Notes under the pieces: generated by a model
What the model was told of the DNA's origin: nothing
Databases searched by the model: none
Seen by the model: the letters and a program-made list of their open reading frames with translations, nothing else
In this document: positions 2,965-36,500 of the stretch, piece by piece
Layout: every line of letters starts with the position of its first letter
Numbering within the stretch: position 1 is the stretch's first letter
NCBI GenBank assembly: GCA_963817895.1
Contig: CAWFQB010000006.1
Coordinates: forward strand, 256,001 to 320,000
Length of the DNA stretch: 64,000 nucleotides
Direction: 5' to 3'
DNA from: an uncultured Chthonomonadaceae bacterium
Lineage (GTDB): Bacteria; Armatimonadota; Chthonomonadetes; Chthonomonadales; Chthonomonadaceae
Translations under genes and position numbers: made by a program

Positions 2965-5900
2965 GTGGACAGGGAAACAAAATTCCCCAAACCTCACCGC
3001 CCAACACCCGGATACCAATCAACCACCAACCACCGAACCACCAACCACCGTAACCGATGGCTGTCGCTCGGCCTGCTGTTTGGCCTCTTTTTGCTGTACC
3101 ACAACACGCTGCCGCTGTATACCGACTGGCTCTGGTTTCAGGAGGTTGGCTATACCAATGTCTTTACCACAACGGTTATCGCGAAAACGCTGCTGTTTGT
3201 CGTGTCGGGCGGGCTGTTTTTCGCGCTGGTGTTCGGCAATATTGTGGCGGCGCGTCGCCTTGCGCCCGAATATGCCGACCGGATGCTGATGGAGCGGTTC
3301 GGGCCGGAGTGGGGACGCGCGATACAGAAATGGCTTGGCGTGATACTGTGCGGCGTGACCGCGTTTGTCAGTCTTTGGGTCGGGCGCATCATGTCGGAAA
3401 ACTGGTCGCGCTGGCTGGAATTCACGCATGGCGCGGCGTTCAAGATAAGCGACCCGGTTTTCAACAACGACATCGGCTTTTACGTGTTTCGCCTGCCATT
3501 TCTCGCCACTGTTTATTCGTTTCTCATGGGCGCGCTGTTGCTGACGTTCATCGCGGTTGTGGCAATCCACATTGCGGATCGCGCGGTAGAAACGTTTGTC
3601 GGCCTGCCCGACCTGCGCCCCGGCGTTCGCGCCCAACTGCTGATTCTGCTGGCCTGCATTGCCCTTGCGCAGGCGTTCGGAACGCGCCTGAACGCTTATG
3701 ACCTGCTGCTCAACGACAACGGCATTTACACGGGCGCGGGCTACGTAGATGTGCATCAGCGACTGTTCGCTCTGAACGCGCAGATGGCCGCGCTTATCTT
3801 TGCCGCCGTCGCCTGTTTCGCGTCCATTCGCGGGCGCAGTTTCAAACTAATTCTCGCGGGCGCGGGCGCGTGGGCATTCAGCCTGTTTGTATTGGGTGGA
3901 ATCTGGCCCAATGTGGTGCAGAGAACATCCGTCGTCCCCAATCAGTTCAACTATGAGCGCGAGTATATTGCCCGCAACATCCTTTACACGCGGCAGGGAT
4001 TCGGGCTTGCCAATGTGCAGCGCGTGGACAATTTTCCCGCTAACCAGAGTTTAACCGGCGCGCAAATACAGGCCAACCGCGACACGCTCGACAACGTGCG
4101 CCTGTGGGATCATCCCTATCTGGGTAAGGTGTATAGCCAGATTCAGACGATCAAGCAGTATTACAAGTTCGAGACGATTTCCGAGGGCGGGATCGCGCCC
4201 CCAATATTGATATTGACCGCTACGTCATCAACGGGCGAACGCGGCAGGTGATGCTCGCCCCCCGCGAACTCGACAGCGGCGCCCTTCCCGAATCCGCGCA
4301 GACGTGGCAAAACCAGAAACTCGCGTACACGCACGGCTACGGCATCGTCATGTCGCCCGTCAACAAAACCCTGCAAGGCGACCCGGACTACTTCATTGAC
4401 GGCTTCCCGCCCAAAGCCAGCCCGGAAGCTCCCAACCTGACCGTTTCTCAGCCCGAAATCTACTACGGCCAAATCGCTCATGAGCAGGTTTACGTAGACA
4501 CGCAGCAGCCGGAGTTCGATTATCCGTCAAGTCAGGGGATAGGGGACAGGGGACAGGGAACAGGCCAACCAGCCACCACGCAAGACCATTATGCCACCTA
4601 CAAAGGCAAGGGCGGTATCGAAATCGGCGGCTCGTATCTGCGGCGGCTGGCGTTCGCTTCCAAACTTGGCGATTGGAACCTGATGCTGGCGAGCAATCTG
4701 ACGCCGCGCACCCGTATTTTGTACCGGCGCGATATTCGGGATCGGCTGCAAACCGTCGCGCCATTCGTGCAGCAGGACGGCGATCCGTATTTAGTTTTGA
4801 ATCCCGACAACGGCAAACTGATCTGGGTGATAGACTGCTATACGGTTTCCGACCGCTATCCCTATTCCACGACTAATATAATGCCCGTAACGCCCACGCA
4901 GTTCATCGCGACAAACTACATGCGCAACAGCGTGAAAGCGACCATTGACGCTTACGACGGCACGATAAACCTGTACGTCAGCGACCCGAACGATCCCATT
5001 GCGGAAACCTACGGGCGGATTTTCCCCGGCCTGCTCAAGCCGCTTGTCGCGTTGCCTGCCGGACTGCGCGCCCATCTGCGCTACCCGGAAGACCTGTTCC
5101 GCGTCCAGCGTTCTGTCTATGCCACCTACCATGTGGAAGACCCCCATGCGTTTTATTCCAACGAAGACGTGTGGGCGGTTCCCACCGAGCCAAACCCTAC
5201 AGAACCCACAACCCCCGTCTCCGCCAATGCGCCCCCTGCCGGATTGTCGCAAATGGAACCGTATTATGTGATTATGCGCCTGCCCGATGTAGGGAACAGG
5301 GGACAGGGAACAGGGAACAGGGAACAGACGAACCAACCACCAACCACCAACCGCCAACCACCCGAATTCGTCCTCATGTCGCCGCTCTCGCCGGTCAAGA
5401 AAGAGGATCAGAACATACTCGGCTGGATGTGCGCGCGGTGTGACGGCGACAACTACGGGCAACTGGTGCTGTATCGGTTTCCGCAGCAGGTATCGGTGGA
5501 GGGGCCGTCGCAGATCGTGCAGCGCATCAACAGCGACAAGGTGATTTCGCCGCAGTTGGCATTGTTGCGGCAGGGCGGCTCGACCGCTTCTATCGGCAAC
5601 ATGCTGGTGATTCCCATCGAGCAATCGCTGCTCTACATCGCCCCGCTCTACGTCGAATCCAGCACGTCCGCCAACAAACTGCCCAAACTGCAAAAGGTGA
5701 TCGTCGCCTTCGGCAACAGCGTGGCAATGGACGACACGCTGGAAAAGGCATTGGCAACGCTGTTTCAGGGAACAGGGAACAGGGAACAGGGAACAGAAGA
5801 AGTTCCTCCTCCGAACACCGAACACCAAACACCGAATACCCTTCCGCCCGCTGTTCGCGCCCTGATTGATCGGGCGGGGCAGCAGTACGATACGGCGCGG

Positions 5901-5993
5901 CAAAAACTGAAACAGGAAGATTTGGGCGGCTATGCGGAGCAGATGAAGGCTTTGCAGCAGACGCTCGACGAATTGCGTAAGGCAGCAAAATGA
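2965..5993 (+). CDS. UPF0182-family membrane protein, frameshifted near 4200, with in-frame heptamer-repeat inserts
   Basis: YTDWLWFQEVGY, DPVFNNDIGFYVFRLP, NVRLWD, YTHGYG, PEIYYG, NYMRNSVKATIDAYDG and HLRYPEDLF. Two ORFs (2965-4251, 4248-5993) join across DIDRYVING. Confidence 0.9.
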
Positions 5994-6051
5994 AGCATCA
6001 ATTTGGTTCCGGTTTGGCGATTGATAAATACCCATCGCTATATGGCATCCG

Positions 6052-6114
6052 GCCGAGGTGTCCTACGGACGCCAATCTTATAATTCATGGAGTTGCGTCC
6101 GAAGGACACTTGGC
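6052..6114. repeat. REP-like inverted pair (GTCCTACGGAC / GTCCGAAGGAC family)
   Basis: GTGTCCTACGGACGC...GCGTCCGAAGGACAC. Related palindromes at ~9767, ~41461, ~56517 and ~56554. Confidence 0.6.
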
Positions 6115-6147
6115 GGAACGCCAACAGAGACAGGCGTTTTCAACGCG

Positions 6148-8689
6148 TTGCGCCTGAGTAGAGCATTAATTGTATTCACCATACTATTCTCAGCGGCTCA
6201 GGCACACGCCACCTATCGCGCCGACTTTTTCGATACGAGCAAGCGTCCGACTGTGACATTTGATAAGGGCAAAACAACGTGGACGCTGCGCAATCAGGGC
6301 GTGGAGCGGATTGTCCGTTATGACGCCAAAGCGGGCGCATTGGAAACCATTGCCCTGCGCGATCTGAAAACGCATCATACACTGAAACAGGCGCCGGGGG
6401 GCGAGGGCGAAATTTCTTTTGCCTCTCCCCTGCTGGAAACGCCCCAACGCTTGCCGGCTGGAAAGTTACGGACGCGGAACCCGGCAGCGCGTGGACGCAG
6501 CCGAATTACGATGACAGCAAATGGAAGGCTGTCAGCCCGCCGCCGGTTGCGGGACACGCGAATGATCAGCAAAGGGGGATGCCATACTGGTATCGCGCCG
6601 CCATTCCTGCCGGACAGTCTGAAAGCGGGCCACGCCTACGCGCTGTATCTGCCGTCCGGCTCGATACCGGGCGAGGAAATTTTTGTTGACGGCGTATCCG
6701 CTGATAAAGTACGCCGACAATGGGCGCCGCGGAATGGAAAAGCGGAGCAGATTGACCTTCCGCCCAATGCCCGTCAGATTGCCGTCAAAGTCAACGGAGG
6801 AAGCCTCGCCCCTGCCCGCCTACATCGTGGAAGTGGGAACATCGCCGCCCAACCTGAACCTGTCGGGCAACTGGCAATTGATGCAGCATACCGTCAACGC
6901 GGGCGAAGATAACAGCGAGGTACTGAGTATTCAACTATCGGGCTTGAAGCAGTACGAGGGTTTTGAACTCGCGGTCAGTTACCAGATTTATGCGGGCGAG
7001 GAGCCGACAATCGCCAAGTGGTTCTCATTTGTGCATCATCGCAAGTCCAACTTTCTGCTTGAATCCGCGACAATTGACAAATGGATATTGCCGGAAAGCC
7101 ACTCGGACACGCGGCGCGTTGGAAGTGAGACGGGCGTATTGGCCGATGCGTTTGAGAAGACGGGGGATGTGCTGCTGACAGCCGCATTGGAAGCGGGAAA
7201 CGCTGTAGAAATTAATGGCGGCAGCGTAGCCCCGACCGCTTATTTGTACGCCGCGCTCAGATCGGATATGCCGCAGCGCACTCCCCGCGCCCTGACCGCC
7301 TTCTGGCATGGCAATGCGAGTGTTGCCGCGTTTTTGTACCAACTTTACATGGGGCAGTATGTGGCGCGGGGCAAGCCCGATTCTATTCCCCTCGCCTACA
7401 ATACGCGCTTTACGTATCGTGACCAGATAGATGCCGCAACGTGTGAAAAAATTATTCCGCTTGCCGCCGCTCTGGGAGTGCAGGCGTTTGTATTGGACGA
7501 CGGCTGGCAGACCAATCGCGCGGCAGATACGGGACGTTATGGCGACTGGCTGACCGACAAAATCAAATTTCCAATGGGATTATTGCCGATTTCCACCCTT
7601 GCGCGCGTCAGTAAAATGCGGTTTGGACTGTGGACGGACGTTACAACCGTCAGCCCCGGTTCGCAGGCCGCGCTTCTGCACCCGGAGTGGCTGTTCAAAC
7701 CTCTGCCGGATGCGTCGGAAGACCAGCCTCCCATGTGTTTTACGGGAGCATGGGCGCGACAGTACGCGCAATCGTTTCAATCCCTGTGCCGCGAATTGGG
7801 CATAACCTATCTGAAAGTGAATTTTCAGCCGGAAACGAATTGCATGGCAACGGAGCATGAGCATCCGACCGGGCATAGTTTGGCCGCGCAGGGGGAAGCG
7901 TGGGCCATGTTCAACGAAATTCTGCATGGTGGGGATAAAACGCTTGTGGTAGTGAACGCGGGGAACGGCGCGCGGCAGGCCGTCAGCGCGTACTCCGACA
8001 TAAACGAGGGCCGGCTGGATAAGGAGTGGCTGGAGCCATACCAAATTGGGAACCGAAAGCAGGAAATGGGATTCTGGTACAACCTGTCAGACATTTTGCA
8101 GCCCAAAAATCGGGACGCGGAATCCGGCGACGCGCTGTTTCAGCAGCCGTCTTTTACCCTCTGCGGGCAGGCGTTGTGCCATGTGCCGACAACAGAACCG
8201 ATAACGAGGGATCAACTGGATTATCTATGGTCGAGCGTCGCGGGGCGTTACGCGAATTACGAAGCGCAGGGCGATTTGCAGCAGATGACAACCGAAGAGC
8301 GCGAAGCGGCGCACAGGTGGCTGGAATGGAGCCGCGAAAACCGCGAATGGCTTGCGTTTACGCAACCTCTTGCTGTGGAATCTGCCGCAGGCGGCGACAA
8401 GCGCGGAAACACCGCAACCAGCAATGTTCGAGGCGTTCTGCACCTGCGAAATGCGCTGCAAGGCCGCTATGGATACGTCTGTTTGTGGAACATGGATAAC
8501 GCGGAAACAATAGTAACGCCCGCCTTCGACCCGTCCGACTACTTCGTTCGCGTCAAGTCCGGCATGAGCATCGTCAATATAAAAGACAGCAAGCCGGTTC
8601 CTTACGCGACGCATGGCGGAACCATTTCGCTCGGCAAAATCACTCTTCCCGCGCATGGCTGGGTTATTTATGAGGTCAAGAGTAAGTAG
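6148..8689 (+). CDS. Secreted GH36 alpha-galactosidase-like protein, several frameshifts at ~6450-6800
   Basis: Signal peptide (LRLSRALIVFTILFSAAQAHA). GH36-like motifs FVLDDGWQ, YGDW...KFPMGL, FGLW and LLHPEW. Confidence 0.7.
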
Positions 8690-8704
8690 TAAGAGGGCTA
8701 TTTT

Positions 8705-9658
8705 ATGAAACATCAGGGTACGGCGTTTCGGGAAGAGATGGCGCGTTTTCAGGCCGATGTAAACGGCAAGAAATTCCGCCTCGGCATGGGAACCGCCTAT
8801 ATCGGGCAGGGCGCGGACGCGGCGAAGTTGAAACAGTTTCAGCAGACGCTCGACGATGCGTATGCGGCAGGATTGCGCTATGTGGATACGTCCGCGCAGT
8901 ATGGCGGCTCGGAATATCGGGTTGGCGAATTTCTAAGCCGCATTGATCGCGCGAGCGTGTTTGTCGCCACCAAATCGCCTATTCCGCAGCCATTGACAGG
9001 GCGCGAGGCCGCGTTGCACTTGCGGCAGAGTTTGCGCAACAGTCTGGAACGTTTGGGCGTGGAGCAGATAGACCTGTTCCAAATCCATGATGTGGAAACG
9101 TTGGATCAGGTTTTGGAAGCCGGGTATGTGCTGGACGCGCTGAACGAAGCGCGGGAACAGGGCTTGATACGTTATTTCGGATTGGCGACGCGATTTCATC
9201 ATCTGCTGGAAACTACAGTTCGGCATGGCGGTTTCGATACCATTTTGACGTACACGGATTTTACACCCGTTCAGCAGTCGGCGCGCGAATTGATTGCGCT
9301 TGCCGCGCAGCGTGGATTGGGCGTGATCAACGGTTCGCCGCTCGGCTTCGGCCTGCTGACCGGGCCGGACCCGCGTACAAACCCAAACCTTGGCGTGGAA
9401 CAGAAACGCGGCGCGAACATAGCGGGACGATGCTACGACTTCTGCAAGGAACACCGTCTGCCCCTGCTCGCCCTTGCTATGCAGTACCCGCTTCAAAACC
9501 CGAACATCAACATCACGCTGACGGGCGCGGCCCTGCCCGAAGAACTCCGCGCCACGCTCGAAGCCATCCAATTGGAGTTGCCTGCCGACATCTGGCGGCA
9601 ACTGGAAGCCGAAACCGGCATCGCGCCCCCGGTTGCTGAGGGTACGTTTTCAAGGTAG
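8705..9658 (+). CDS. Aldo/keto reductase
   Basis: LGMGTA, YVDTSAQYGGSE, VFVATK, SLERLGVEQIDLFQIHD and GSPLGFGLLTG. Confidence 0.92.
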   Translation: MKHQGTAFREEMARFQADVNGKKFRLGMGTAYIGQGADAAKLKQFQQTLDDAYAAGLRYVDTSAQYGGSEYRVGEFLSRIDRASVFVATKSPIPQPLTGREAALHLRQSLRNSLERLGVEQIDLFQIHDVETLDQVLEAGYVLDALNEAREQGLIRYFGLATRFHHLLETTVRHGGFDTILTYTDFTPVQQSARELIALAAQRGLGVINGSPLGFGLLTGPDPRTNPNLGVEQKRGANIAGRCYDFCKEHRLPLLALAMQYPLQNPNINITLTGAALPEELRATLEAIQLELPADIWRQLEAETGIAPPVAEGTFSR

Positions 9659-9695
9659 GACGCCCATATTGTTCGGCTTCTGCCGACAACGCAAG

Positions 9696-9815: not shown

Positions 9816-9856
9816 AACTCGCAGCATATCCATACTGGCATCGAAGGGCTACCAAC

Positions 9857-16262: not shown

Positions 16263-16367
16263 AGGTTGTTAGGTTATCAGGTTACAATGTTCGTCTGAAT
16301 CTCTGCTAAACCTGAAAACTTACCAAATTGAATACCTAACAACTAACAACTAACAACCTGACAACCT
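16263..16367. repeat. Short-period tandem-repeat inverted element (AGGTTGTC/ACAACCT family)
   Basis: AGGTTGTTAGGTTATCAGGTT ... AACAACTAACAACTAACAACCTGACAACCT fills the DUF1800-DUF1501 gap. Confidence 0.7.
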
Positions 16368-18445
16368 TATCTCCTCTGAAACTCCGGGGAGCCGAGCAGC
16401 AGGGCGGCGATACGGGGGGCGGTAACGCTGCCCGACGCGGTTGAGACATTGGTAGCCGTGGGCGCGTCACCGTTCATCTGTTTGAGCAGCGTGGCGCGGG
16501 TGGCCGGGGCGATGGGCGTGTGCAGTATTTGCGCGGCAAGCGTGTCCATAAGCTGTCCGGCCTCTTTTGCCGGGACGCTTTTGGCGTCCGTTGGCGCGGT
16601 CGGCAGGTGAACGCCTGTGACATCTCCCAATTTGCCGTCCGTGAGCGCGAGAGCAAAGTTCAGGCGCGAAATCAGCGCGCCCGCCGACACCCACTTGCTG
16701 GAATCTTCCGGGTAGCCGGTGGGAGCCTGATACTGGAACAGGGGCTGGCCCATCGTGCCGACCTGTCCGAACAGGGTGGTTTCGCTGGCGTCCAGATAGC
16801 CGCCGCCTTTGGGCGGCTTGATGAGCGATGTGGCAATTCTGGCCTGACCCTGTCCTCTGCCGCGCCCCATAGCAACTTCCGCATAGGTTCCGCCAAGCGC
16901 GCGAACCGAAGATACGGCGTATTCAAATGGCGATTTGATCTTGCTGCGGTACGCTGTCGGCGCATAAAATTCGGGTGAAGTGACAATGGTTCGTACGATT
17001 TCGCGCAGGTCGCCATCCGTTCGTTTCCATGTCGCCACGCACTTATCCACAAGCGAAGCGGGCGGCGTATCGGCAACAAACCGCTGGCAGAGTTGATAGG
17101 AGACGTGCTTCATGGTGGCGGGATGGGAGGCTAGAATATCCAGCACCTTTTCGCCATCCTGAATGCCGCCGCCTGCCGGAATGGTTTGTCCGAGTACCGT
17201 TTTCGCGCCGTTGTCATGCGCGGCGGGAGCGAAGCGGAACGCCGCCTGCTGCGGCGTACTTGCCCTGACCGGGCCGTTTGTTGCCCTGCGAAGCCACGCC
17301 CCAGCCTGTGAAGCAACGCGCCACTTCATGCACGTCGTTTTGCGTATAGCCGCCGTCCACGCCCAGCGTGTGCAGTTCCATGATTTCGCGGGCGTAGTTT
17401 TCGTTCAGGCCGGTTGGGGCCTTCTTCTTTTGCTGCGCGGCGGCTTTGAGTCTGGCGCGTCGCGCGGGCATAACGGCTGCCGTTTCCGCGCCCGGATCGG
17501 CTGTGGAAAGATAGTTGTCCAGATAAACGAGCATGGCGGGACTGTGTGCGCTGGCTCCGAGCAGATCGCGGAATTTGCCCATAACATGTGGGCGAATCGC
17601 ATCGCGGTCATCGGCGATTTTCAGGATGCCGCAGGGCGCGCGGCGCAGGTCAATATTGAAATGGTTGTTCCAGAAATCAGCCAGCACCTCTTGAAGTTGC
17701 CGTTCCGATTCTACCGCTCGTACCATTTTCGCGGCCATAAACTGCTCATGCGCTTCGGTCACAGGCATAGCGGCCTGCGCCACCTGCTGCCGCAACGCGC
17801 GCATGTCTTGCATCTGTGTCATCGTATCCGCGTCTGCGCTTGCGCCGAGCAGCGACTTTTTGGCTTTGTTGCCCTTTGCCGCTTTCTTGTCGGCAACCGG
17901 CGGCGCGGCTTCCATTTTCTCCGGCATAGCGGGGGGCGTTTGCCCCGCCACAGCCCCGGCAACAGGCGTTTGTCCTGCCGCTGCGTCTGCCGCAGCGGTT
18001 TCGCGCGCCGCCTGCTTTTTGGCGGCTTTGTTGACGCCCTGCGCCTGTTTCGCCACGCCTAAAAACGTGTTGTACTCTTCGGCAAGCTGTTCGCTGCTCA
18101 ACTGTAGCTGCGCGTAGCTCGCCAATTGCCGGTCTACCGCCGAGTCGTCAATGCGTTCGGGATGCAATTGCAGATCAATGTAACGCGACAGTCCCATCGC
18201 TTTTACTTTCTGCGACATCGCCGGGACGCGCCCCGAACCCAAGCCGGTTCAAAACATGAACGATTTTCTGGTCTTCGGTCAAGCGGCGCGGCGGCATTGC
18301 GCTTCATCGCGTCACCGGAAACGGGCGGGGCGGTTTTCTCAACGGGCGCGGCGGAAAGCGTGTTGGCGGTGAGCGTAATTCCCCCTGCGCCAAGCGAAAG
18401 GGCAAGGGCGCTCAGGGCGATTCGGTTCAGTCTGGCGGTTGGCAT
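16367..18445 (-). CDS. DUF1800 family protein, frameshifted (~18270, ~18205, ~17255)
   Basis: QLQEVLADFWNNHFN, SPAMLVYLDN, NENYAREIMELHTLG, KIKSPFEY and LLLGSPEFQRR, spread across three or more ORF pieces. Confidence 0.88.
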
Positions 18446-20235: not shown

Positions 20236-20336
20236 GATTTTAGGTTGTCAGGTTGTCAGGTTGTCAGGTTGTTCGTTAGAGAAAAGCGCCTGTGGCCTCT
20301 TTGCCTAACAACTAACAACCTAAAACCCTAAAACCC
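20236..20336. repeat. Octamer tandem-repeat inverted element
   Basis: (AGGTTGTC)x3-4 ... TAACAACTAACAACCTAAAACCCTAAAAACC; same family as 16263-16367. Confidence 0.75.
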
Positions 20337-21868
20337 TATCTCTCGAACGTACTCCGATACCGGCGCAGGCGGCGCTGCAATTCCACGAGGGCGAAGTGCG
20401 CGGCGTCGCGAGTCAGGGTTTGATTCGATTGCGGCCTGTTGGCGGCAGCCGGTGATGGGGACGCCATCATGGTGGCAACGGCGCGGTCATGCCATAAGAG
20501 TACGCCATCCTCCACGCGGACGAGAGCGGCGGTGGCTTCCACGCGGGCGGAACGCCCCTGTTCCGCTGTGGATGTGTTGGCGATTACGGGCGTATGCGGT
20601 TCGCTTTCAGACAACTCTACGTCCGTTACGCGGGTAAGCAGCACATATTCTACATGCAGGCTGCGCCCAAGCGTTTGCGCGCGGGCAAGGTCAGGCTGAT
20701 CTTCATTCTTCCACAGCGACGTTTCCCTGATACCCTGCGCGATAAGAGAAGCGCGAACATCGTTTTCAGTGATTACGCGGTCAGGCGCAATAGGCAAGAG
20801 GTCGGGCAGAAACAGGGCGGAAACATCGGCGTGAAGGTTTGCAAGCGGGGCCGGGACTACGCGCCGCCCCACAGCCGTAAAGATCAGTCTGTCCGCGTCG
20901 GAGGGCGTAAGCGTCGGCGTCACGGCAATGTGGTCGCCCGGACGCATGAACGGGGCCGGTTCTCCCACGCGCAGGGCGTGAAGCAGCAGGTTGACGGTTT
21001 GCTGCGCCGCGTCGCGTATCAAATCGCCCTGCGGCTTCTGGTACTGCTTATGAAACAACACGCGATCCGCAAACGCGGTTCCGGCGGCCGCGACATGCGC
21101 GGGCCAGCGTGTTATATGGGGAACGGCAGCAACGGGCATTACATTGGCAATGTGAATGTCGGCGAATACCTCCGCGTCGCGTATCGCGCCCTCATGAATG
21201 GCGCAGGCGGTCACGCGGGGCATGAGAATGGCCTGACTGTTCAGCAGGGCGCACAGCCGCCGCGCATTGTCGGGCAGCATGGCCTGTTCAGATGTCAGAT
21301 GCAGGGTTTGTAACGCCTGCGTCGTCTCATTTTCACCGACCACGACCACCTCAAGACGCTCCTGAAGGCGTTCCGTCAGGGCATCCGTGAGCAGCGCCTG
21401 CGCCAGCATGACACGCTGCTCCGTCGGCACAACATCAATTTTACCGGCAATCGAAGCCGCCGAACCGGGAGACTGTAAAATAGCGGGGGAATTGTTGCCG
21501 GAACCGGGGGCAACGCTTGATACGGGTTTGGTTACTTGATTGTCCGATTTGCCCGCAGGCGCAACGGCTGACAACGCCGGAGCCGCCGCCTTTGCCGGTA
21601 TCGAACGCTTTCGGGACTTGCGGCGTTTTTTGCTGTGGGAAGCGCGTTCCCGGTCAATGCGCCATTGCGTCTGTGGCGTAGTGGCGGAACGGGCAGGCAA
21701 CAGCACGATAACGCGCTTGATTGCGGCTTCGGCTGTTGCCGATTGCGTATTGCCGGTTTTCTCCCGTTGCGCGATAACAGCCTTTTCCGTTTGCGCGGCA
21801 GCGTTAAGGACCAGGCCGAAAATGAACAAGCAAATAATTATTTCGCATCGCCGCAAAATTCCCACCAT
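20336..21868 (-). CDS. Secreted hypothetical protein with two CsgG/LpoB-like alpha/beta repeats
   Basis: Signal peptide and low-complexity linker; AQTLGRSLHVEYVLLTRV...ALVRVEDGVLLW pattern. Confidence 0.5.
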   Translation of the reverse strand: MVGILRRCEIIICLFIFGLVLNAAAQTEKAVIAQREKTGNTQSATAEAAIKRVIVLLPARSATTPQTQWRIDRERASHSKKRRKSRKRSIPAKAAAPALSAVAPAGKSDNQVTKPVSSVAPGSGNNSPAILQSPGSAASIAGKIDVVPTEQRVMLAQALLTDALTERLQERLEVVVVGENETTQALQTLHLTSEQAMLPDNARRLCALLNSQAILMPRVTACAIHEGAIRDAEVFADIHIANVMPVAAVPHITRWPAHVAAAGTAFADRVLFHKQYQKPQGDLIRDAAQQTVNLLLHALRVGEPAPFMRPGDHIAVTPTLTPSDADRLIFTAVGRRVVPAPLANLHADVSALFLPDLLPIAPDRVITENDVRASLIAQGIRETSLWKNEDQPDLARAQTLGRSLHVEYVLLTRVTDVELSESEPHTPVIANTSTAEQGRSARVEATAALVRVEDGVLLWHDRAVATMMASPSPAAANRPQSNQTLTRDAAHFALVELQRRLRRYRSTFER

Positions 21869-22355: not shown

Positions 22356-22580
22356 ATGGACCTGGAAGCCAGGGATTTGCTCACCGTCGAACAGGCGGCA
22401 CAGTATTTGCAAGTAAGTCAGTCCAGTATTCGCTCCTACATCCGGCAGGGCCGCCTACAGGCATTCCGCATCGCGGGTAAGCGCAAAGTGCTTATTCCCC
22501 GCGCCGCCCTGCTGTCCCTGCTCGAACCGGCGCGGCCTGAAGATGTGGATCACGCACCCGTTGAGGAGGAGGAAGAGTAG
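22356..22580 (+). CDS. Excisionase-like HTH_17 DNA-binding protein
   Basis: LLTVEQAAQYLQVSQSSIRSYIRQGRLQAFRIAG. Confidence 0.88.
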   Translation: MDLEARDLLTVEQAAQYLQVSQSSIRSYIRQGRLQAFRIAGKRKVLIPRAALLSLLEPARPEDVDHAPVEEEEE

Positions 22581-22636
22581 GTGATAGTTGATGGTTGATA
22601 GGTCGTGTATCTCTATCAACTACCAATTATCAACTC
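22581..22636. repeat. Heptamer-repeat hairpin (GTTGATA/TATCAAC)
   Basis: GTGATAGTTGATGGTTGATAG ... CTATCAACTACCAATTATCAAC immediately after the stop codon. Confidence 0.7.
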
Positions 22637-23640: not shown

Positions 23641-23750
23641 TTGGTGGTTGGTAGTTGGTGGTTGGTGATTGGTTGACAGGCGGCGCAAAATGATGCAGAG
23701 TTTGCTACAATTAAACATGACCAACCACCAGTCACCAACCACCAGCCACC
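23641..23750. repeat. Heptamer-repeat inverted element (TGGTTGG/CCAACCA) overlapping the wzt start
   Basis: TTGGTGGTTGGTAGTTGGTGGTTGGTGATTGGT ... ACCAACCACCAGTCACCAACCACCAGCCACC. Confidence 0.8.
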
Positions 23751-25118: not shown

Positions 25119-27827
25119 ATGCCTATGGATCCAACTCATAATCAACGTCTGGAACAATGGCAAGCCTGCCTTATGTTGTTGTGGCTGGCATTGCTGATCT
25201 TTGTCGCGCTGCAATCCATCATGCCGCCCGCCGCGCGTTCGGCAAACGCGCCCGCTGACGAGTTTTCTGCCAATCGCGCTCTTGTTCCCCTGCGCGAAAT
25301 CGCGAAACTGCCCCATCCACAGGGCGCGTCGGAACATACGCGCGTTCGCGAGTATCTGATGGCGCAGTTGCGGCAGTTGGGATTGTCGCCCCGATTGCAA
25401 ACCACTCCGGTTGTGGGAGCGCGTTCCTATCGTCCGTATCGGGCGGGAACCGTTCACAACATTTGGGCAAAGATTCCGGGCAAAACCCCAACCGGAACGC
25501 TGCTGCTGGCCGCGCACTATGACTCGGTGAATACGGGACCGGGCGCAAGCGACGACGGCGCAAGCGTAGCCGCTCTGCTTGAAACCCTCCGCGCCCTTCA
25601 ATCCACCCGAAAAACCTCTCCCGGCAGCCACTTCTCCGCCATCAACACCCCCTCCACGAGTTTTAACTTCCGCAACGACGTCATTGTTCTGCTGACCGAC
25701 GGAGAAGAGACCGGCCTGCTCGGTGCGCGGGCATTTGTAGAAGAGGGGACAGGGGACAGGGGACAGGGGACAGGAGAAGAGGACTCATCCTTCATCCTTC
25801 ATCATTCATCCTTGCCTTTCCTCGTTCTGAACTTCGAGGCGCGGGGAACAAGCGGGCCGTCCCTGATGTTCGAGACGAGTGAGGGGAATGGCTGGCTGGC
25901 GCGGCAGTTCGCGTCAGGCGTACCTCAACCACTTGGCTCGTCGCTATTTTACGCCGTGTACAAACTGCTGCCCAATGATACGGATTTCACCGAATTTCGC
26001 GGGGCAGGCATGATTGGGCTGAACTTCGCTTATCTGGATCGGGTTGCGCATTATCATACCAGTCTGGATAGCGTCAGCCATCTCGATCTGCGCAGTTTGC
26101 AGCATCAGGGCGACAACATGCTCGGACTGGCGCGGCGGTTCGGCAGCGAATCGCTCACGCAGGCGCGGCAGCCGGACGTGATCTATTTCAATGGCGCGCG
26201 AAACTGGCTGTGCGTGTATCCGCAAACGTGGGCCGTGCCCCTTGCCATACTCGCAACCCTGCTCACCTTAGTCGCGCTGGCGCAGCGGTGGCGAAAAAGC
26301 GCGGAACCTGTCTGGCGCAGGGCGGTTGTGGCGTTGAGCGGCGTGGCGTGGGTTGGCGTGGCGGTTGTGGCGACGACGCTTGCAATGGCAGGACTGACGT
26401 ACTGGCTGACATCGGGCGCCGCTTCGCCGCGCATGACGCTGTATCTGGACGATACGACATTCACAGGCGTTCTATTGCTGTGCGTGGGAAGCGTCCTGCT
26501 GCTGCTCGACGCGAAACGCCTGCCGTACCAAAAACGAACAAAGCCTGACAGTGAAGAGGGCACGACGGCAGAAGCACAGAAGACAGGTTCAACGGCAACA
26601 ACGAAGAACAGCCGTGACGAAATAGCAGAACAGAACTCAACGGCGGCAAATCTGCCAATCAGCCTGACATTCGACGCTATGCAGATGGGCGCAATACTCT
26701 GGTGGCTGCTGCTGACATGGCTGACGGCGCTGCTGCTGCCGGACGGGAGTTACCTGTTCGTGTGGCCGTTGCTAGGCGTTCTACTGGCGCGGTGGATTCA
26801 GGGCGCGTATCTGCAAAACAGACCACATAAACTCCGTTCGCCTGAGAGCATGAAAGCAAGCGCCTCCCCTTCTCCCAAAAAAGCCTGGGAGAAGGGGTTG
26901 GGGATAGGTGGAGCCGCGGGGGGCTATTTACAGGATAAGCAGGAAATGGGTACGAACTTCGGCGTCACGCTGCTGTGCCTGCTGTTCGGCGCAACCCCTG
27001 CAATCCTTTTAGTTATCCCCGTGCTGTGCCTGCTGTTTCAAACGCTTTCCATCGGGTCGCTGACGATTATCGGCGTAGTGACAGCATTGACAATCGCTCT
27101 GCTGCGGCCTCAATTGCAGGTTGCGCGGAATATTTTCACCGGGCATTCGCAGGCATTGCCTTTGTTGTTTGCGGCAACCGGGACGGTTCTGCTGTGGGTG
27201 GGCGCGGAGGTTTTGCAGCCGAGCGAAACCAATCCGCGTTCCAACAGCCTTTTCTACGCGCTGAACGCGGATACCCAAACGGCGCTGTGGGCGAGCAATG
27301 ACCGCAAGCCGGATGCCTGGACAATACAGTTTTTGGGTGAGCATCCCCAACGAAGCGCGTTGCCCGATTTTCTGCCCGTCAGCCCGGAAACGTTTCTTCA
27401 CGCGCCCGCGCCGCCTACGCCCTTACCGCCCCCTGTCGCCACATTGCAGGAAGACAGAATTGAAAACGGCGTTCGGACATTGCGCCTGCTGCTCATTTCG
27501 CCACGCCATGCGCCCGTTATGGAAATGGCGGTTTCGTCCGATGTTCGCGTTCTGAACGCTTCCATCGAGGGCAAGCCGGTAGACGGCAGCCGTGACCCCG
27601 GCCATGCCTGGAGTCTGTTGTACTTTGCCGTGCCGGAAAACGGCCTGACGCTGACCCTGCGCGTGTCGCCCGCCGCGCCCGTCACATTACATGTCATTGA
27701 CCGCTCGTATGGCCTGCCCTCCATCCCCGACAAAACATACGCCCCGCGTCCCGCCGATATGATCGCCTCGCCCGCTTCCGGCTGGTATCAGGATACGGCT
27801 CTGATTTCTAAAACGTTTCGGTTCTAG
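25119..27827 (+). CDS. M28-family multi-pass membrane metallopeptidase (ERMP1-like) with in-frame repeat inserts
   Basis: AAHYDSV, GASDDG, TDGEETGLLGA, NFEARG, PNDTDF and HYHT, followed by TM helices. Confidence 0.92.
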   Translation: MPMDPTHNQRLEQWQACLMLLWLALLIFVALQSIMPPAARSANAPADEFSANRALVPLREIAKLPHPQGASEHTRVREYLMAQLRQLGLSPRLQTTPVVGARSYRPYRAGTVHNIWAKIPGKTPTGTLLLAAHYDSVNTGPGASDDGASVAALLETLRALQSTRKTSPGSHFSAINTPSTSFNFRNDVIVLLTDGEETGLLGARAFVEEGTGDRGQGTGEEDSSFILHHSSLPFLVLNFEARGTSGPSLMFETSEGNGWLARQFASGVPQPLGSSLFYAVYKLLPNDTDFTEFRGAGMIGLNFAYLDRVAHYHTSLDSVSHLDLRSLQHQGDNMLGLARRFGSESLTQARQPDVIYFNGARNWLCVYPQTWAVPLAILATLLTLVALAQRWRKSAEPVWRRAVVALSGVAWVGVAVVATTLAMAGLTYWLTSGAASPRMTLYLDDTTFTGVLLLCVGSVLLLLDAKRLPYQKRTKPDSEEGTTAEAQKTGSTATTKNSRDEIAEQNSTAANLPISLTFDAMQMGAILWWLLLTWLTALLLPDGSYLFVWPLLGVLLARWIQGAYLQNRPHKLRSPESMKASASPSPKKAWEKGLGIGGAAGGYLQDKQEMGTNFGVTLLCLLFGATPAILLVIPVLCLLFQTLSIGSLTIIGVVTALTIALLRPQLQVARNIFTGHSQALPLLFAATGTVLLWVGAEVLQPSETNPRSNSLFYALNADTQTALWASNDRKPDAWTIQFLGEHPQRSALPDFLPVSPETFLHAPAPPTPLPPPVATLQEDRIENGVRTLRLLLISPRHAPVMEMAVSSDVRVLNASIEGKPVDGSRDPGHAWSLLYFAVPENGLTLTLRVSPAAPVTLHVIDRSYGLPSIPDKTYAPRPADMIASPASGWYQDTALISKTFRF

Positions 27828-27831: not shown

Positions 27832-27936
27832 TTGTCTTGAACCATGATTTCACATGATTAGAATGATCAACATGAGGAACACGCCTCCTCAATCATGGTA
27901 ATCATCAAAATCATGTGAAATCATGGTTCAAGACAA
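27832..27936. repeat. Nonamer-periodic inverted-repeat element (copy A)
   Basis: Perfect 28-bp IR TTGTCTTGAACCATGATTTCACATGATT between convergent genes. Confidence 0.9.
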
Positions 27937-27941
27937 AACAA

Positions 27942-29150: not shown

Positions 29151-29210
29151 GAAAGGAACTCCAAATACAAGGTTGATACACCGCCTCAAACCGGCAAAAC
29201 TCGTTATCTA

Positions 29211-29894
29211 CTACTCAGGCGACAATGCCCGTTTGTCCATGTTCAGGGTGACGACACCGTCGTCTATGGAAGCAATGGAGTCGGCTAAAAACGTGGTGTC
29301 CGCGCCGAAGAAGTGACCCTGACGCACGGTAATGGCAGTTGGCTTGCCGCTTGCGGTGTCTATGGTAACGCTGTGTAATTCCCCGATTTTCTCCCCGTCC
29401 CGACTGTAAACGTCATCCCCTTCGCTCATAATGGCGTTTTCCACGTCCTGCTGATGCAGGTATTCTTCCACCGCCACAGGCTGTTCGCCTCGTTCTTCAT
29501 CGTCCACAACGGGAACAGGCAAGCCCATGCCCGCGCCGAAAGGGAAACCGGAGGGCGCGAAAGCCTGCCCCATTGCCGAACCCGGCCACAGCAGTCCGCC
29601 GACAGGCGCGTTGGCAAACGATTCGTGAAAAGTGGGCGGAGCGGGAGAATACTGCTGTTCATCGAAACGCGGCAATGCGTGTACCTGTTCCGCCGTGTAC
29701 CCGACCGTGACGGGGCCGGTTCCGCTTTCCAGCACGGCGGCAAGGGGTATTTCTATATCATCGGGGAGCAACATCCCCTTTTCCACAACAAGCGTTTTCA
29801 CCGCGCCCGTTGCCGGGTCCAGAATGAGATGCTTAATCGTCCCCAAATCGCGTCCGTCCTGCGAACGCGCGTGATCGCCAAGTTCGATACGCAT
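29211..29894 (-). CDS. Two-PRC-barrel domain protein
   Basis: SQDGRDLGTIKHLILDP and SRDGEKIGELHSVTID repeats; GAGGAG RBS. Confidence 0.85.
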   Translation of the reverse strand: MRIELGDHARSQDGRDLGTIKHLILDPATGAVKTLVVEKGMLLPDDIEIPLAAVLESGTGPVTVGYTAEQVHALPRFDEQQYSPAPPTFHESFANAPVGGLLWPGSAMGQAFAPSGFPFGAGMGLPVPVVDDEERGEQPVAVEEYLHQQDVENAIMSEGDDVYSRDGEKIGELHSVTIDTASGKPTAITVRQGHFFGADTTFLADSIASIDDGVVTLNMDKRALSPE

Positions 29895-29917
29895 GATATA
29901 CTCCTCGCCACCTGAAA

Positions 29918-30044
29918 CAGGTGTTCGGTATTCAGGTGTTCGGTGTTCGGGAAATGCAAGAGTATTCAGGTTTACGTTTATGCGCCAAGAGTATCAGCAC
30001 AATACCTGCACACCAAATGCCAAATACCGAACACCTGAATACCG
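29918..30044. repeat. Heptamer-repeat inverted element (GGTGTTC/GAACACC)
   Basis: CAGGTGTTCGGTATTCAGGTGTTCGGTGTTCGG ... CCAAATACCGAACACCTGAATACCG. A lone left arm of the same family lies at ~45055-45085. Confidence 0.8.
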
Positions 30045-32156: not shown

Positions 32157-32306
32157 AAAGCAACCTCCAACAAGAGTTGTGTCGCTATCCGGTATAATTT
32201 AGGACGGCGGCAGGTGATGTGTTGTTGTTTTGTTACGGTTGCGCCCCGGAAGGTTCAGGCGTTTGAAAAATAGTTTGTATCGACTCTGAAAGAGTGTAAG
32301 CAGAGC

Positions 32307-32735
32307 ATGAAAAGAGAGTGCCGCTATGGGGTGTTGAAGTCATCGTGGGGAGTATTTGTGCGCCTGACAGCAGAAGCAATCCCATTGTCAGAGTTCGAGC
32401 GAGAAACAATCTCTCTTACGCCTGACATACATTACCATGCGGAGAGAATTTCTCATGAGGAGCGTGAGGCTGTCGAGAAGGGCTTGCTGCTCATCGCGGC
32501 AAGCATACGCGCCACGATTTCAGCGCCCATTATGATCTGCCTTGTTGACATAGATTACAATCCATGTGATTACCAGCCGGAAGGAATTACCTGCGCAATG
32601 ATGGAATGGTCTGCTCAAGAGTTCGGCTTCACGCCACCGACAATTCCTGTCTTCTATGATAAGGCAAGCAATTGCTACCATTTCAACTTTGAAGAAGCGA
32701 AGCAGGCCGGGAACGCAGGTGGGAAATTTGAATGA
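32307..32735 (+). CDS. Hypothetical protein, possible orphan immunity protein
   Basis: 142 aa; lower GC; stop overlaps the next start (ATGA); upstream of an RHS remnant. Confidence 0.55.
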   Translation: MKRECRYGVLKSSWGVFVRLTAEAIPLSEFERETISLTPDIHYHAERISHEEREAVEKGLLLIAASIRATISAPIMICLVDIDYNPCDYQPEGITCAMMEWSAQEFGFTPPTIPVFYDKASNCYHFNFEEAKQAGNAGGKFE

Positions 32736-33100
32736 AGCAAGGTTACTACATTGTCGTTCCAAATTTTGTGTCGTACATGTACCCGGATTATGATGTGGTA
32801 TGCAGATGCTTATCGTGGCTCATTAAGAACTTTGAGCCAATCCTTAATTTGTGTGAGCAGGACTTTATGTTCAGTGTCATTCCTATCTGCTATATGGGCT
32901 GCTACCCCGGTATTGGTTTTAATACCGAACAACCGCAGCAAAATGCCTCTGACCTCACTATATTGTCATTCGGTCTTGAAAGAGCCATCAACGCCTTCCT
33001 TTCTAAAGACGCATTGACGAGAATTGTAGAAGCCTCGAAAGACGGTCCGATTACCTGGCAAGAAGTATGTAGACAGCACAACATAGACCCTGATAATTGA
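32732..33100 (+). CDS. Hypothetical protein, possible orphan immunity protein
   Basis: 122 aa; AT-rich; abuts the RHS-core remnant. Confidence 0.5.
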   Translation: MKQGYYIVVPNFVSYMYPDYDVVCRCLSWLIKNFEPILNLCEQDFMFSVIPICYMGCYPGIGFNTEQPQQNASDLTILSFGLERAINAFLSKDALTRIVEASKDGPITWQEVCRQHNIDPDN

Positions 33101-33105
33101 TGTAA

Positions 33106-33204
33106 GTGGGAACGGGAAGGTTCGTCAACCGCGACCCGATAGGACAGGCGGGCGGCCTGAACGTGTACGCCTACTGCCAGAACAATCCCGTCAACCACTT
33201 CTAA
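33106..33204 (+). pseudogene. RHS repeat-associated core remnant
   Basis: Manual translation VGTGRFVNRDPIGQAGGLNVYAYCQNNPVNHF*; matches the RHS core motif GRF-xx-DPIG-xx-GG-N-Y-Y-xx-NNP. Confidence 0.85.
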
Positions 33205-33257
33205 ATGCGAAGATTCTCCCTGCTATGAAGAAGAAAACTTAAAAACGTAGAAAAGGT

Positions 33258-33295
33258 TTGACCGGAATTTGCCGTGTAGTGTATAATGACTACAC
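33258..33295 (+). promoter_or_regulatory. Sigma70-type promoter with a dyad straddling the -10
   Basis: TTGACC-N18-TATAAT; GTGTAGT(33274-80)...ACTACAC(33289-95). Confidence 0.7.
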
Positions 33296-33392
33296 CTTAC
33301 ACTTTATATGCGCTTGCTTCGCCTTCCTTACCTATGGATTCCTGCCTCTCAGGTGGCGCGCATTGTGTCAGGCACGTACAAGTTTACAAATG

Positions 33393-33526
33393 AGGGATTA
33401 GATATTAGGCATCAGGCATTAGAGGCTGAAACTAAGATTCGCAGACGTTTGCCAATCACGCGCGACGCGCGATAAACAATCACAACCAAATACCCCCTAA
33501 TGCCTGATGCCTAATATCTAATCCCT
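33393..33526. repeat. Heptamer-repeat inverted element in a 5' leader
   Basis: Perfect 30-bp IR AGGGATTAGATATTAGGCATCAGGCATTAG. Confidence 0.9.
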
Positions 33527-33545
33527 ACTTCAAGGAGACCACCGC

Positions 33546-36500
33546 ATGAGTTTTGACGAACTCCCGTCGGACGCGCCTTTGCCCGCTTCACCAGCCGGCG
33601 AGAACGCCGCATCCGACCGGGAAGCGTCGGACAGGGATGCGCCGCCTTCCGCGCCCGCGCGCCGTCGCCGCGCGCCACGGACAGGGGCAGACGCAGCATC
33701 CCCCGAACCTGACACGACCAACGAACCCGCCGCGCGCGCAACCCGCCGCAGCCGACAACCCGCCGAAGAGGGGATAACAGAAGGGAAAAGGGAAAAGGGA
33801 AAAGGGAAAAGGGAAGAATCAAAGGCGGAAGACAGCCAACCGTCAGGCGAAAATACGAATGTCAATCCTGCGTCAACATCCCGGCGTCGGGCGGCAAAGC
33901 CTGCGCCGGTGAATGGCGTTGCCGATGCCGCGCCTGTTCTTCCAGCCGAGAGTGAGACAGCAAAGACGGATGCGCCTGCGCCCGCTTCACGCCGCCGTTC
34001 GCGGCGCAAGGATGGGGAACCTGCTGTTGTCGCAACGCCGGAATCTGCCCCTGTCGCAGAAGCCGCGCCGGAAACTGAAAACGCTTCCGCTGCTCCCGCC
34101 GATATTACGGACGACGCGCCTTCCGCGCCACCTGCCCGAACATCACGCCGGACTCGCGCCAGCGCGGGAGAGCAGGGGGCAGAAGAGGAAAAAGGGAAAA
34201 GGGAAAAGGGAAAAGGGAAGAGAAGACAGCAGACGCGCAGCCAGAAATCGAAAATCGAAAATCGAAAATCGAAAATCCCACACCGGGGCGGACGCGACGC
34301 AGGCGGGGCGGGGATGCGGATACTGCCGCGCCGAATGGTGAGGTTGTTTCTGCGCCCGACCTTGTGGCGGAGGTGGGCGGGGAACAGAACGGTACGGCCC
34401 CGGACGCGCTTTTGATTGATGTAGAGGGCGATCAAATAGTAACGTCTGCCGCCGACGCGCCGGATACGACAGCGCAGGCAGAGGATAGCGCGGCGGATTT
34501 GCAGGCGGCGCTGCCCGGAACTGTGGAAACCGAAGAGGAAGCGGACGATGCGGAAGTAGGCGAGGTCAGTGGCGACACAGCGGAAACGCGTAGCCGCAAA
34601 CGCCGCAATCGCCGCAACAACAAAGGACGCCGCGAACCCCGGAACGGAGAAGCGCAGGATACGCCCGCGCCGATTGCGAACGCGGCAGTGGCCGAACCCG
34701 AGACGGTTGCGGCTGACAGTTCCCGTAGCGGTTCCCGTTGTTGTGGAGGAGGAGGCGGAACCCATTGATTTGAGCGTGGGTACGCATCTGGTTGTACGTA
34801 ACGGCCTGCCGCGAATTCATATCAATGGCGCTCCGGTTCCGCCCGTGCTGTTTTTCGGCAACATGGAGGGCGCGAAGAACGCGCAGCGCGTCCTTTCGGA
34901 AGTGCGCCGCGCCGCCAAAGCGGGCGTACACCTGCATTCCACCCTCATCGAACTGCCCTGCCCGCTGACCGAAGCGCACTACGTTCTGGACGAGATAGAC
35001 GTTCGGCTTCGCGCCCTGCTGGATGCCGACCCGGACGGGTTTGTGATGCCGCGCCTCGTGTTTGTGCCTGCGCGTGGCTGGAAGCGCGAGTACGCGAGCG
35101 AAATCAGCGTGTATAACGACGGCACGAACGGCGACCCATCCCTGACAAGCGAACGGTTCTGGCAGGAGTGCGAACGCGCCCTGCACATGCTCATTGAACA
35201 TCTTCAGGGGCAGACATACGGCGAGCGCGTGTTCGCGTACCATCTGGAGCGAGGCGAATGGTTTCAGCCCGCCGATCAGGGGTATGACCGAAGCACGGCG
35301 AATCGCGACGCCTTCCGCGACTGGCTGCGCGAGAAATACCAGAACAGCCTGATTCTGCTTCGCGCCGCCTGGTACAATGGCGATGTGCAGTTCCACACCG
35401 CCGAGATTCCGCCCGATCTGGGCAAGCCCAATCCGCAACGCGCCTTTTACGAAACCCGGCGCGAACGCGGCATCATTGACTTCAACGAGTTCACGTCCGA
35501 AACAACGGCCAACCGGCTGGCGCAATTGGCGCGGACGGTGAAAAAAGCCTGCCACAACAATGCGCTTGTGTCCGTCTGCTACGGGTATACGCTGGAATTC
35601 GGACACGGATTCAGCGGGCATCTCGCCCTGAATCGCCTGCTTGCCAGTCCGCACGTAGATTTGATCTCCGGCCCGCCCTCCTATCTCGACCGCAAGCCGA
35701 CAGGGGCGGCTTCCCTTCCGGCTCCCGTCGACTCGCTGCGGCTGCACGGCAAACTATGGTTGTCCGAAGACGACACCAAAACCTATCTCGCGCCCGCGCA
35801 GCAGGACGCGGACGACTTTAACCCGCGCCTTGCGGACCGTTTCTCGACCGAGCAGGCGCAGGCGCGAGCCATAGGCCGCGCGCTTGCCACCAATACCGGC
35901 GTCGGCTGGATGGATTTATGGGGCGAAGGCTGGCTTGACGACGAGGGGTTCTGGGAGCGTATCGGCGGCTTTGCCAACCGCATGGCGCAGCAGGACAGGG
36001 CGACAACCGCAACCACAAGCCCCGATGTGGTTGTTCTCATAGATGAAAAAAGCCTGCTGCATGTTCAAAAGGGCGAACCGTTCTTCCGCAAGTTGACAAA
36101 CGGCCTGCGCGATATTTTGCAGCGGACGGGCATCAACTACGGACTATATCTGCAAAGCGATCTGCTGGACCCGGCTTTCCCCACGGATGCGCGTATGTAT
36201 CTGTTCCTCACGCCCTTTCGCCTGCCCGTCGAACAGCGGACGGCGATTCGCGAGAAATTACAGCGCGACAACAAAACGCTCGTCTGGCTGTACGCGCCGG
36301 GAGCCTGCGAGGAGCGGCCTTCGGGCGGAACCGGCATGGAGGATGTCGCAACCGCAACGGTCGGCCTTATTTTGCGGCAGCAGGCGTGGAATTCGGAAGT
36401 GGGTTCGCGCATTCTCGATCCCAACCATCTGCTGACGGAGCGGCTTGGCGGGCGCGACATCGGGGCGCGGGAACGGCTCAATCCGTCCTATTACGTGGAC

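Follow-up and report, generated by a model that had tools for sequence, protein, structure and literature searches.

Two-armed repeat elements of a Chthonomonadaceae genome: sites kept between species, arms replaced, and a probable translation filter inside genes

We describe a family of two-armed repeat elements in an uncultured Chthonomonadaceae bacterium, in a 64,000-nt stretch of its DNA (the window; G000:C6:256001-320000, contig CAWFQB010000006.1) and across the whole assembly (G000, GCA_963817895.1; 7.48 Mb, 14 contigs, 81% complete). Each element has a left and a right arm, both short tandem arrays, on either side of a spacer. Between genes the two arms are mostly complementary and form a hairpin, whereas inside genes they mostly belong to different repeat families. 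The reading we favour, with some reserve, is that these are one family of elements whose sites are kept while their content is overwritten, likely by copying, and whose products pass a translation filter inside genes. The filter is the firmest part: it is the best-supported cause of the in-gene mismatch, and very probably the right one.

Repeat arms across the genome

A period scan of G000 returned 890 period-7 and 403 period-8 arrays, mostly of 3-5 copies, with 207 unit types; the same scan of shuffled DNA returned zero arrays of either period. The arrays are uniform in length (about four units each), and 58 units have at least three arrays each, with no single dominant unit. With a more sensitive pass we recovered 2,046 arms of 7-10-nt units; contig C4 held 230 arms, against 0 in its own shuffle. 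The total came to 1,310 elements, 585 of them in left-then-right layout, and 160 of the 1,310 lie within coding sequence, in 147 host genes.

In every unit family the left form is G-rich, the right form is C-rich, and both are fixed. Among 736 neighbouring arm pairs, 575 run G-rich then C-rich, 5 are reversed and 156 are of other kinds. The preliminary description of the window had proposed that arm order is not random, and that the elements follow a grammar of layout and polarity rather than one shared sequence. Both proposals held genome-wide, with many unit types under one polarity that is also kept at 124/127 sites orthologous between species.

For comparison we used a congener (G002; 2.38 of ~8 Mb), a further genome (G001; 0.4 of 6.6 Mb, with 33 arms, too few for statistics) and contigs of sequencing runs X1-X3. 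Genes were called by our own dicodon model with the arms masked, giving 6,632 pieces and 76% coding.

Complementarity inside and between genes

Taking a complementarity score of 0.6 as self-complementary, 15/107 left-right elements inside coding sequence were self-complementary in G000, against 236/268 intergenic ones (Fisher p 2e-43). Complementarity is thus not independent of coding status, and the contrast that had been noticed on a few elements of the window extends to the genome. Elements overlapping a gene end behave as the intergenic ones do (96/109). Three classes were excluded from the contrast as ambiguous: C-terminal (1/16 self-complementary), N-terminal (21/49) and weak open reading frames (7/36).

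The same pipeline gave 4/39 in-gene and 125/153 intergenic self-complementary elements in the congener; 8/39 of its in-gene elements have any complementary arm pair. Length differences between orthologous sites of the two genomes are a multiple of three at 39/42 coding sites against 62/180 intergenic or boundary sites, and this keeping of the frame validates the coding class. At some congener loci (for example the orthologues of G000 C4:367326, C5:327233 and C6:281743) we also observed an in-gene near-hairpin cassette, NDERGMMNDE...HSSLITHHSS, which carries a stop-free left-arm variant and was not seen in G000.

Median spacer length is 12-13 nt inside genes but about 50 nt in intergenic elements, whose spacers are AT-rich (43% GC vs 57%). 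They often start with AATGC and finish with its complement, a possible inner inverted repeat. Intergenic hairpins begin at the upstream stop codon (median 1 nt in co-directional gaps); 235 lie in co-directional, 46 in convergent and 8 in divergent gaps, the last being 435 of all 3,285 gaps.

Sites persist and arms turn over

Orthologous flanks of G000 and G002 are 83% identical. The congener has arms at 118/137 gaps that are armed in G000, against 58/189 gaps that are armless there, and at 40/42 orthologous coding sites. The arms themselves change: where both species have an intergenic hairpin (70 sites), 51 switched both arms, 14 kept both and 5 differ on one side. GAGATAC is the largest family of G000, with 25 arms per Mb; its triple unit is absent from the 2.38 Mb of G002, where 31 of 32 sites orthologous to its elements hold other arms. 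Where a side carries several arms, the inner one is more often the lineage-specific one, on 53/83 sides in G000 and 32/47 in G002. Within single elements, an odd unit recurs in both arms of the intergenic hairpin in 75/92 cases, against 42 in within-family shuffles (maximum 58 in 5,000 shuffles). Spacers of orthologous sites did not resemble each other more than other spacers do, not even at sites with an unchanged family, and are uninformative at such divergence.

The congener also has long nested elements at the intergenic orthologues of G000 C14:314919, C2:420390 and C5:659071, with at least three left arms and mirror right arms around one loop.

Several observations point to copying of blocks from site to site. 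Among the 107 in-gene elements, 65 different combinations of 19 left with 27 right units occur. In genes, the arms use a single codon placement, in 38/43 SSFILHPSS arms and 22/24 IRDTRYEIR arms. A stop-free variant that differs by two bases (GGC GGA) is present in 10/11 in-gene left arms of the GGATGAA families and in 2/99 intergenic or boundary arms. A near-identical GAGATAC/TCATCCT junction is common to 20 elements, and 33/177 intergenic spacers closely match that of another site, against 0 after shuffling. Outside G000, the exact 27-mer of the stop-free variant was located at no fewer than 121 places of other genomes, across about ten phyla by record title; the GGATGAA arm is shared by genomes of Planctomycetota, Acidobacteriota and Chloroflexota. 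Since most of the loci in other genomes are not in a frame that is open on both sides, this variant is taken from a wider shared pool and not invented gene by gene.

The preliminary description had called the arms exchangeable modules. Their re-assortment, with the combinations given above, bears this out, whereas an exchange of one arm at a time does not stand. One-arm differences at orthologous sites are commoner in genes (14/24 coding vs 5/70 intergenic, Fisher p 7e-7), but we dropped arm-by-arm exchange because the coding count lies within a site shuffle (10.4, p 0.07) and disappears at a stricter threshold.

The same data could be read without any copying between sites. Slippage and point mutation would then change each site independently, selection would favour pairing between genes and a benign peptide within them, and shared units would be convergent. 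The sites are indeed old and conserved, in some switches the old and new units are related (GGTAGATG and GGTAGAC), and families correspond between G000 and G002 above chance (mutual information p 2e-4): GAGATAC corresponds to AGGCATT/C at 9/15 orthologous sites, and the GGTAGAT(G) types to GGTAGAC/AGTAGTC. We nevertheless consider it improbable. The identical two-base variant, codon placement and junction recur across many unrelated genes, different sites have spacers in common, and GAGATAC is abundant in one species and not found in the sequenced part of the other.

Translation and the choice of arms

To be self-complementary, an element must place its unit in both orientations on the coding strand. 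In most families, one orientation carries a stop codon –in frame within three units of a 7-nt array– or encodes a hydrophobic peptide. In-gene elements therefore join the tolerated left arm of one family with the tolerated right arm of another, and are hairpins where both arms of one family are tolerated. On this reading, in-gene elements are mismatched because one orientation of most families holds a stop or a hydrophobic peptide.

The stop codons are seen directly in the counts. Arms whose consensus bears a stop make up 15/304 of the in-gene arms, against 40% expected from the intergenic ones. Among the intergenic arms, 784/1,243 come from families in which one or both directions contain a stop, and therefore no unchanged in-frame hairpin is possible for them. 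Where neither orientation of a family has a stop, genes more often hold the hydrophilic one: in G000 for 28 of 35 families (5 against, 2 ties; arms 183:24), and in G002 for 17 of 18 (arms 82:5). EKRRKGE (hydrophilic) and SPFLLFS (hydrophobic) are an example of such an orientation pair. Solo arms in untranslated co-directional gaps show no hydrophilic bias (22:21), which ties the orientation bias to translation and not to the transcribed strand. We had also considered that in-gene arms are merely T-poor; this was rejected, as the commonest in-gene right arm, TCATCCT, is T-rich, and stops and hydropathy superseded it.

Where both arms can be translated, hairpins return. Elements with the DEGGRMKDE variant and SSFILHPSS were hairpins in 7/9 cases, against 41/107 overall with that right arm (p 0.026). 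Among 80 loci of other genomes, 14 are in a frame open on both sides, and 10 of these 14 are hairpins.

The preliminary description had suggested another cause: that strong hairpins may be selected against in coding mRNA. Such selection could act through ribosome stalling or RNase III cleavage and leave mismatched arms. In its favour, 92 of the 107 in-gene elements are unpaired (median -18.7 kcal/mol) and the 15 paired ones are weaker than intergenic hairpins (-41.5 vs -51.9 kcal/mol); moreover, in Coxiella the stem of a related intervening sequence is cleaved by RNase III (PMC4990558). As the main cause it is not supported, and we find it unlikely. Random re-pairing of the in-gene arms (n=77) predicts 5.4 +/- 1.8 hairpins and 13 were observed, so that hairpins are in excess and not depleted, up to the 7/9 among codable pairs. 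The complementary arm pairs in genes of the congener and the hairpins at most in-frame loci of other genomes speak the same way. Selection on the mRNA does not predict which arm is lost, unlike stops and hydropathy, and the weaker in-gene folding accompanies shorter spacers. A secondary cost of hairpins in genes may exist, with in-gene hairpins being weaker but also shorter.

Genes enclosed by arms

Both four-helix-bundle genes (PF05635) and all four GxxExxY genes (PF13366) of G000 lie between matched arms (6/6; read by eye for three of the six), with a different arm family around each. The flanks of both PF05635 genes do not look like rRNA by eye. The nearest full-length cassette to the window lies about 1.2 kb before it, a GxxExxY gene (G000:C6:254500-254850) between matched CACGGGGAA arms. 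A xisH-xisI pair (G000:C1:1582300-1583500) lies between matched CACAGAGA/CTCTGTGT arms, and two insertion sequences within hairpin loops: a DDE_3 with a helix-turn-helix (G000:C2:121300-122700) and an ISAzo13-type DDE (G000:C3:363950-365450).

The preliminary description had listed four kinds of gene that might be linked to the repeats. The four-helix-bundle and GxxExxY links stood and the other two did not: in the 81% of the genome that is assembled, no arms enclose the single reverse transcriptase found, and none of three HUH Y1 genes (PF01797) is enclosed by matched arms within 1.2 kb. We also rejected M42 peptidase, dnaK, MFS and HEAT genes as cargo, since their wide left/right pairs were taken as neighbouring elements with undetected partners. 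From their position, the GxxExxY, four-helix-bundle and xisH-xisI proteins could have a role in the process.

Elements in the window

The four in-gene modules and two hairpins of the preliminary description lie where it had placed them (Table 1), and the CCAACCA and CCGAACA right-arm units of the in-gene modules also close the hairpins at 23641-23750 and 29918-30044, as it had stated. Against dinucleotide shuffles, the RNA folds of the four in-gene modules at 5290, 5766, 25744 and 34182 have z values of +2.1, -0.7, +0.9 and +0.1 (-6 to -16 kcal/mol), and those of the nine two-arm intergenic elements range from -4.3 to -13.2.

Table 1. Repeat elements and host genes of the window (positions counted from its first letter)
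Feature	Position	Strand	Evidence or remark
UPF0182 membrane protein gene	2965..5993	+	Pfam PF03699 on both pieces; 3 in-gene modules and N-terminal arm
CAACCAC C-rich right-type arm, N-terminal part of UPF0182	3020..3055	+	sequence
In-gene module, GGGGACA left arm and short CCAACCA-type remnant (QGIGDRGQGTGQPATT)	4532..4582	+	UPF0182
In-gene mismatched module GGGAACA + CCAACCA (GNRGQGTGNREQTNQPPTTNRQPP)	5290..5362	+	UPF0182 frame
In-gene mismatched module GGGAACA + CCGAACA	5766..5840	+	UPF0182 frame
Intergenic hairpin, AGGTTGTT / CTAACAA arms	16263..16367	.	fold z -4.3
Intergenic hairpin, left arm AGGTTGTC, right arm CTAACAA then CTAAAAC	20242..20338	.	fold z -4.6
Intergenic hairpin, TAGTTGA / TATCAAC arms	22575..22636	.	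fold z -5.5
Intergenic hairpin, TTGGTGG / CCAACCA arms	23641..23750	.	fold z -5.5
Membrane peptidase M28 gene	25119..27827	+	Pfam PF04389; translation
In-gene mismatched module GGGGACA + TCATCCT (GTGDRGQGTGEEDSSFILHHSS), directly after GEETGLLGARAFV motif	25744..25813	+	M28 frame
Intergenic hairpin, irregular 9-nt units (CATGATT core)	27838..27935	.	fold z -9.5
Intergenic hairpin, GGTGTTC / CCGAACA arms	29918..30044	.	fold z -7.2
Intergenic hairpin, AGGCATC/AGGCATT arms	33393..33527	.	fold z -11.7; G002 has same family here
In-gene left arm GGGAAAA (EGKREKGKGKREE)	33781..33815	+	gene starting 33546; three-arm module here in G002
In-gene mismatched module GGGAAAA + AAAATCG	34182..34277	+	gene starting 33546
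Intergenic hairpin, ACAGGATTA family (arms as around GxxExxY gene at C1:43927)	37597..37752	.	fold z -13.2
GGTGTTC left-type arm, partner undetected	45055..45084	.	sequence
Hairpin AGTGAGA / ACTCTC(A), beginning at DUF2961 gene stop	49934..50001	.	fold z -5.5
Right-type 10-nt arm ATTCGCGTTT, partner undetected	59949..59976	.	sequence
CCAACCA right-type arm at gene boundary, partner undetected	62279..62311	.	sequence

The UPF0182 gene is in two frames in the assembly (break near 4200), whereas most relatives have one open frame of 927-1058 aa. Its first module (4532..4582) is a loop of variable length in the orthologue alignment. At the other two, the congener has GGGGTCA + CAATCGG + CCCAACA (site of 5290..5362, where G001 has different arms) and GGGAACA + CAATCGG + CCCAACA (site of 5766..5840). 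Judging from orthologue alignments, the in-gene modules appear to sit in loops.

The M28 site was found in four states: GGGGACA + TCATCCT in G000, a three-arm cassette in G002, another 40-nt right arm with the frame kept in a run X3 contig, and armless in G001. A structure prediction of the M28 host made without an alignment had a mean pLDDT (predicted local distance difference test) of 39 and was left unused; a PDB search with this host aligned the insert site only below significance. The same gene has a second kind of in-gene insert, 117 nt long and in frame (26823-26939), which contains a short palindrome (CTCCCCTTCTCCC ... GGGAGAAGGGG) and is absent from a related run X3 contig.

Two intergenic sites also differ between relatives. 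In place of the hairpin at 22575..22636, a run X3 contig has 65 other letters. The hairpin at 23641..23750 begins 4 nt past the stop of an ABC2 permease gene, and its site is empty in G002 and in a run X3 contig.

The frame of the gene that starts at 33546 is interrupted in this assembly near the left arm of 34182..34277; G002 stays in frame there, with GGGAACA + AAAATCG. The N-terminal region encoded by this gene is long and rich in Ala, Pro and Glu, with R-rich motifs (RRRRA, RKRRNRR); it is conserved in both G001 and G002 and precedes a conserved domain with no Pfam match. Frame breaks split UPF0182 (4188-4251), DUF1800 (17214-17329), FIST (51805-51961) and the 33546 gene (33546-34800); these are probably long-read indel errors. 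An assembly or sequencing artefact, which the many frame breaks might suggest, can be practically discounted as the source of the elements, because G001, G002 and run X3 contigs have arms at the same sites with the frame kept, and other genomes hold the same 27-nt arm.

A proposed mechanism

Overwriting by copying could follow two routes. Between sites, a new arm or cassette would enter at the centre of an element; the homology would be the shared outer arms, of about 30 nt, and the older outer arms would erode by slippage. Within an element, fold-back copying would make the right arm mirror the left one. Between genes both routes would run unchecked, and hairpins would switch family as a pair; inside genes, translation would remove most products of copying. 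The GxxExxY nuclease and four-helix-bundle genes would be full-length members that may start the process, as their co-location with matched arms suggests.

We also envisage a more specific version, which we regard as doubtful: a dedicated overwriting system in which the GxxExxY nuclease and/or the four-helix-bundle protein recognises the two-arm layout, not its sequence, and inserts a new family centrally.

Alternatively, an enzyme could write the arms anew: at a break, it would extend each of the two DNA ends with a short unit copied from a template, and the family of an element would depend on which template was then in use. In both arms the G-rich strand has its 3' end toward the centre, as in telomeres. 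This strict polarity (575 vs 5), the uniform length of about four units, the lineage-specific inner units and the paired switching of arms between genes would all fit. Even so, this is an unlikely explanation: the genome (81% complete) yielded one reverse transcriptase only, outside any pair of arms, and the fixed stop-free variants and shared junctions indicate copying of existing blocks.

Several points weigh against the copying and filter reading that we prefer. For the overwriting, no enzyme, intermediate or target duplication was found, and the empty sites of relatives are too diverged to define boundaries. The family correspondence between species is unpredicted by random overwriting. 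Orthologues at 83% identity do not separate arm-by-arm from whole-cassette replacement. The count of younger inner arms leans on GAGATAC (29 sides), whose copies are non-independent, and inner arms were not significantly less degenerate than outer ones (p 0.16). Mirrored odd units could fit fold-back copying, or selection on pairing. We also rejected an origin of the GGC GGA variant in coding DNA, since only 14/80 loci of other genomes are in a frame open on both sides.

For the filter, two common families oppose the hydropathy rule, and SSFILHP, the right arm most often seen in genes, is mildly hydrophobic. Translation of the in-gene inserts is itself deduced from their open frames. Coding status depends on our own gene caller, in which 285/6,632 pieces lack a start codon, and the arm finder overlooks irregular arms (window 3020-3055 and 37716-37752), so that single-arm counts are inflated.

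Related systems and significance

The elements of G000 resemble heptamer repeats, rRNA intervening sequences, REPINs and Rickettsia palindromic elements, but they lack a defining feature of REPINs and one of the Rickettsia elements. Rickettsia palindromic elements are palindromes of conserved sequence. Here, unlike in that family, the arms are tandem arrays, 92/107 in-gene elements are not self-complementary and the content of a site varies between species. What both have in common is dispersed repeats tolerated in frame within proteins: 147 genes in G000, and 53 of 526 elements in protein genes of Rickettsia (PMC1458961). For this and the other sources cited in this section, the comparison covers the accessible portion of the paper.

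REPINs with their RAYT transposases, described by Bertels and Rainey in 2011, also have two inverted arms and a spacer in a hairpin, in hundreds of copies, and a gene of single-copy type flanked by the same repeats (PMC3116915); the intergenic class of G000 is likewise an inverted doublet with a spacer. As described there, REPINs are extragenic, with conserved palindromic REPs and an HUH transposase (PMC3116915); in contrast, 160/1,310 elements of G000 are in coding sequence and matched arms enclose none of the three HUH Y1 genes.

The heptamers of Xanthomonas (GGGAATC) and Nostoc (GGGGA(C/T)T) reported by Rehm et al. in 2015 have about four units per array, convergent inverted pairs, the G-rich strand directly after stop codons, and 83% of positions kept between two congeners (PMC4692102). 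The arrays of about four units, convergent complementary pairs and G-rich form by the upstream stop are all present in G000. However, those genomes are described as having one unit each, kept at shared positions (PMC4692102), whereas G000 has dozens of families that replace one another at sites shared with its congener, and many of its elements lie in genes with arms that do not match.

The TAACTGA direct repeats of Beggiatoaceae, Cyanobacteria and Bacteroidetes (MacGregor 2015) co-distribute with XisH/XisI, and their stops in one orientation probably control their distribution in coding DNA (PMC4679880). G000 is similar in its stop-bearing orientation and in the xisH-xisI pair between matched arms. 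As presented in that paper, TAACTGA is a single-unit direct repeat near start codons; paired arms, re-assortment and turnover are features of G000 (PMC4679880).

The 23S rRNA intervening sequence of Coxiella burnetii has an S23p / four-helix-bundle open reading frame and tandem heptamers (GACAGAT) in its 5' end (PMC4990558). Its complementary ends around a PF05635 gene are matched by both such genes of G000 (2/2). Unlike it, most elements of G000 are geneless, 160 are inside protein genes and the PF05635 flanks are not rRNA-looking (PMC4990558).

In the literature that we searched, with subscription journals mostly outside its coverage, no paper turned up on arms mismatched inside genes or on sites that stay in place as their families change. 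The heptamer repeats of bacteria have long been puzzling, and the papers on them describe, in their accessible text, single units without a mechanism (PMC4692102, PMC4679880). What we add is a genome-wide test of the cause of the mismatch and a measured turnover.

If the dedicated overwriting system outlined above were true, it would sweep new 7-8-nt families through hundreds of fixed sites, including surface loops of ~150 proteins, within the divergence time of two congeners. It would explain the origin of bacterial heptamer repeats and of rRNA intervening sequences, and it would act as a natural means of shuffling peptide modules of 10 residues in proteins.

Two rules emerge from the elements themselves. 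Arm choice inside genes follows translation, not RNA folding. The site is kept across species while the repeat is replaced, with both arms together between genes, and this argues against spread by ordinary insertion into new sites. Turnover of this kind is a route by which one soil-type bacterium rewrites loop peptides in at least 147 proteins.

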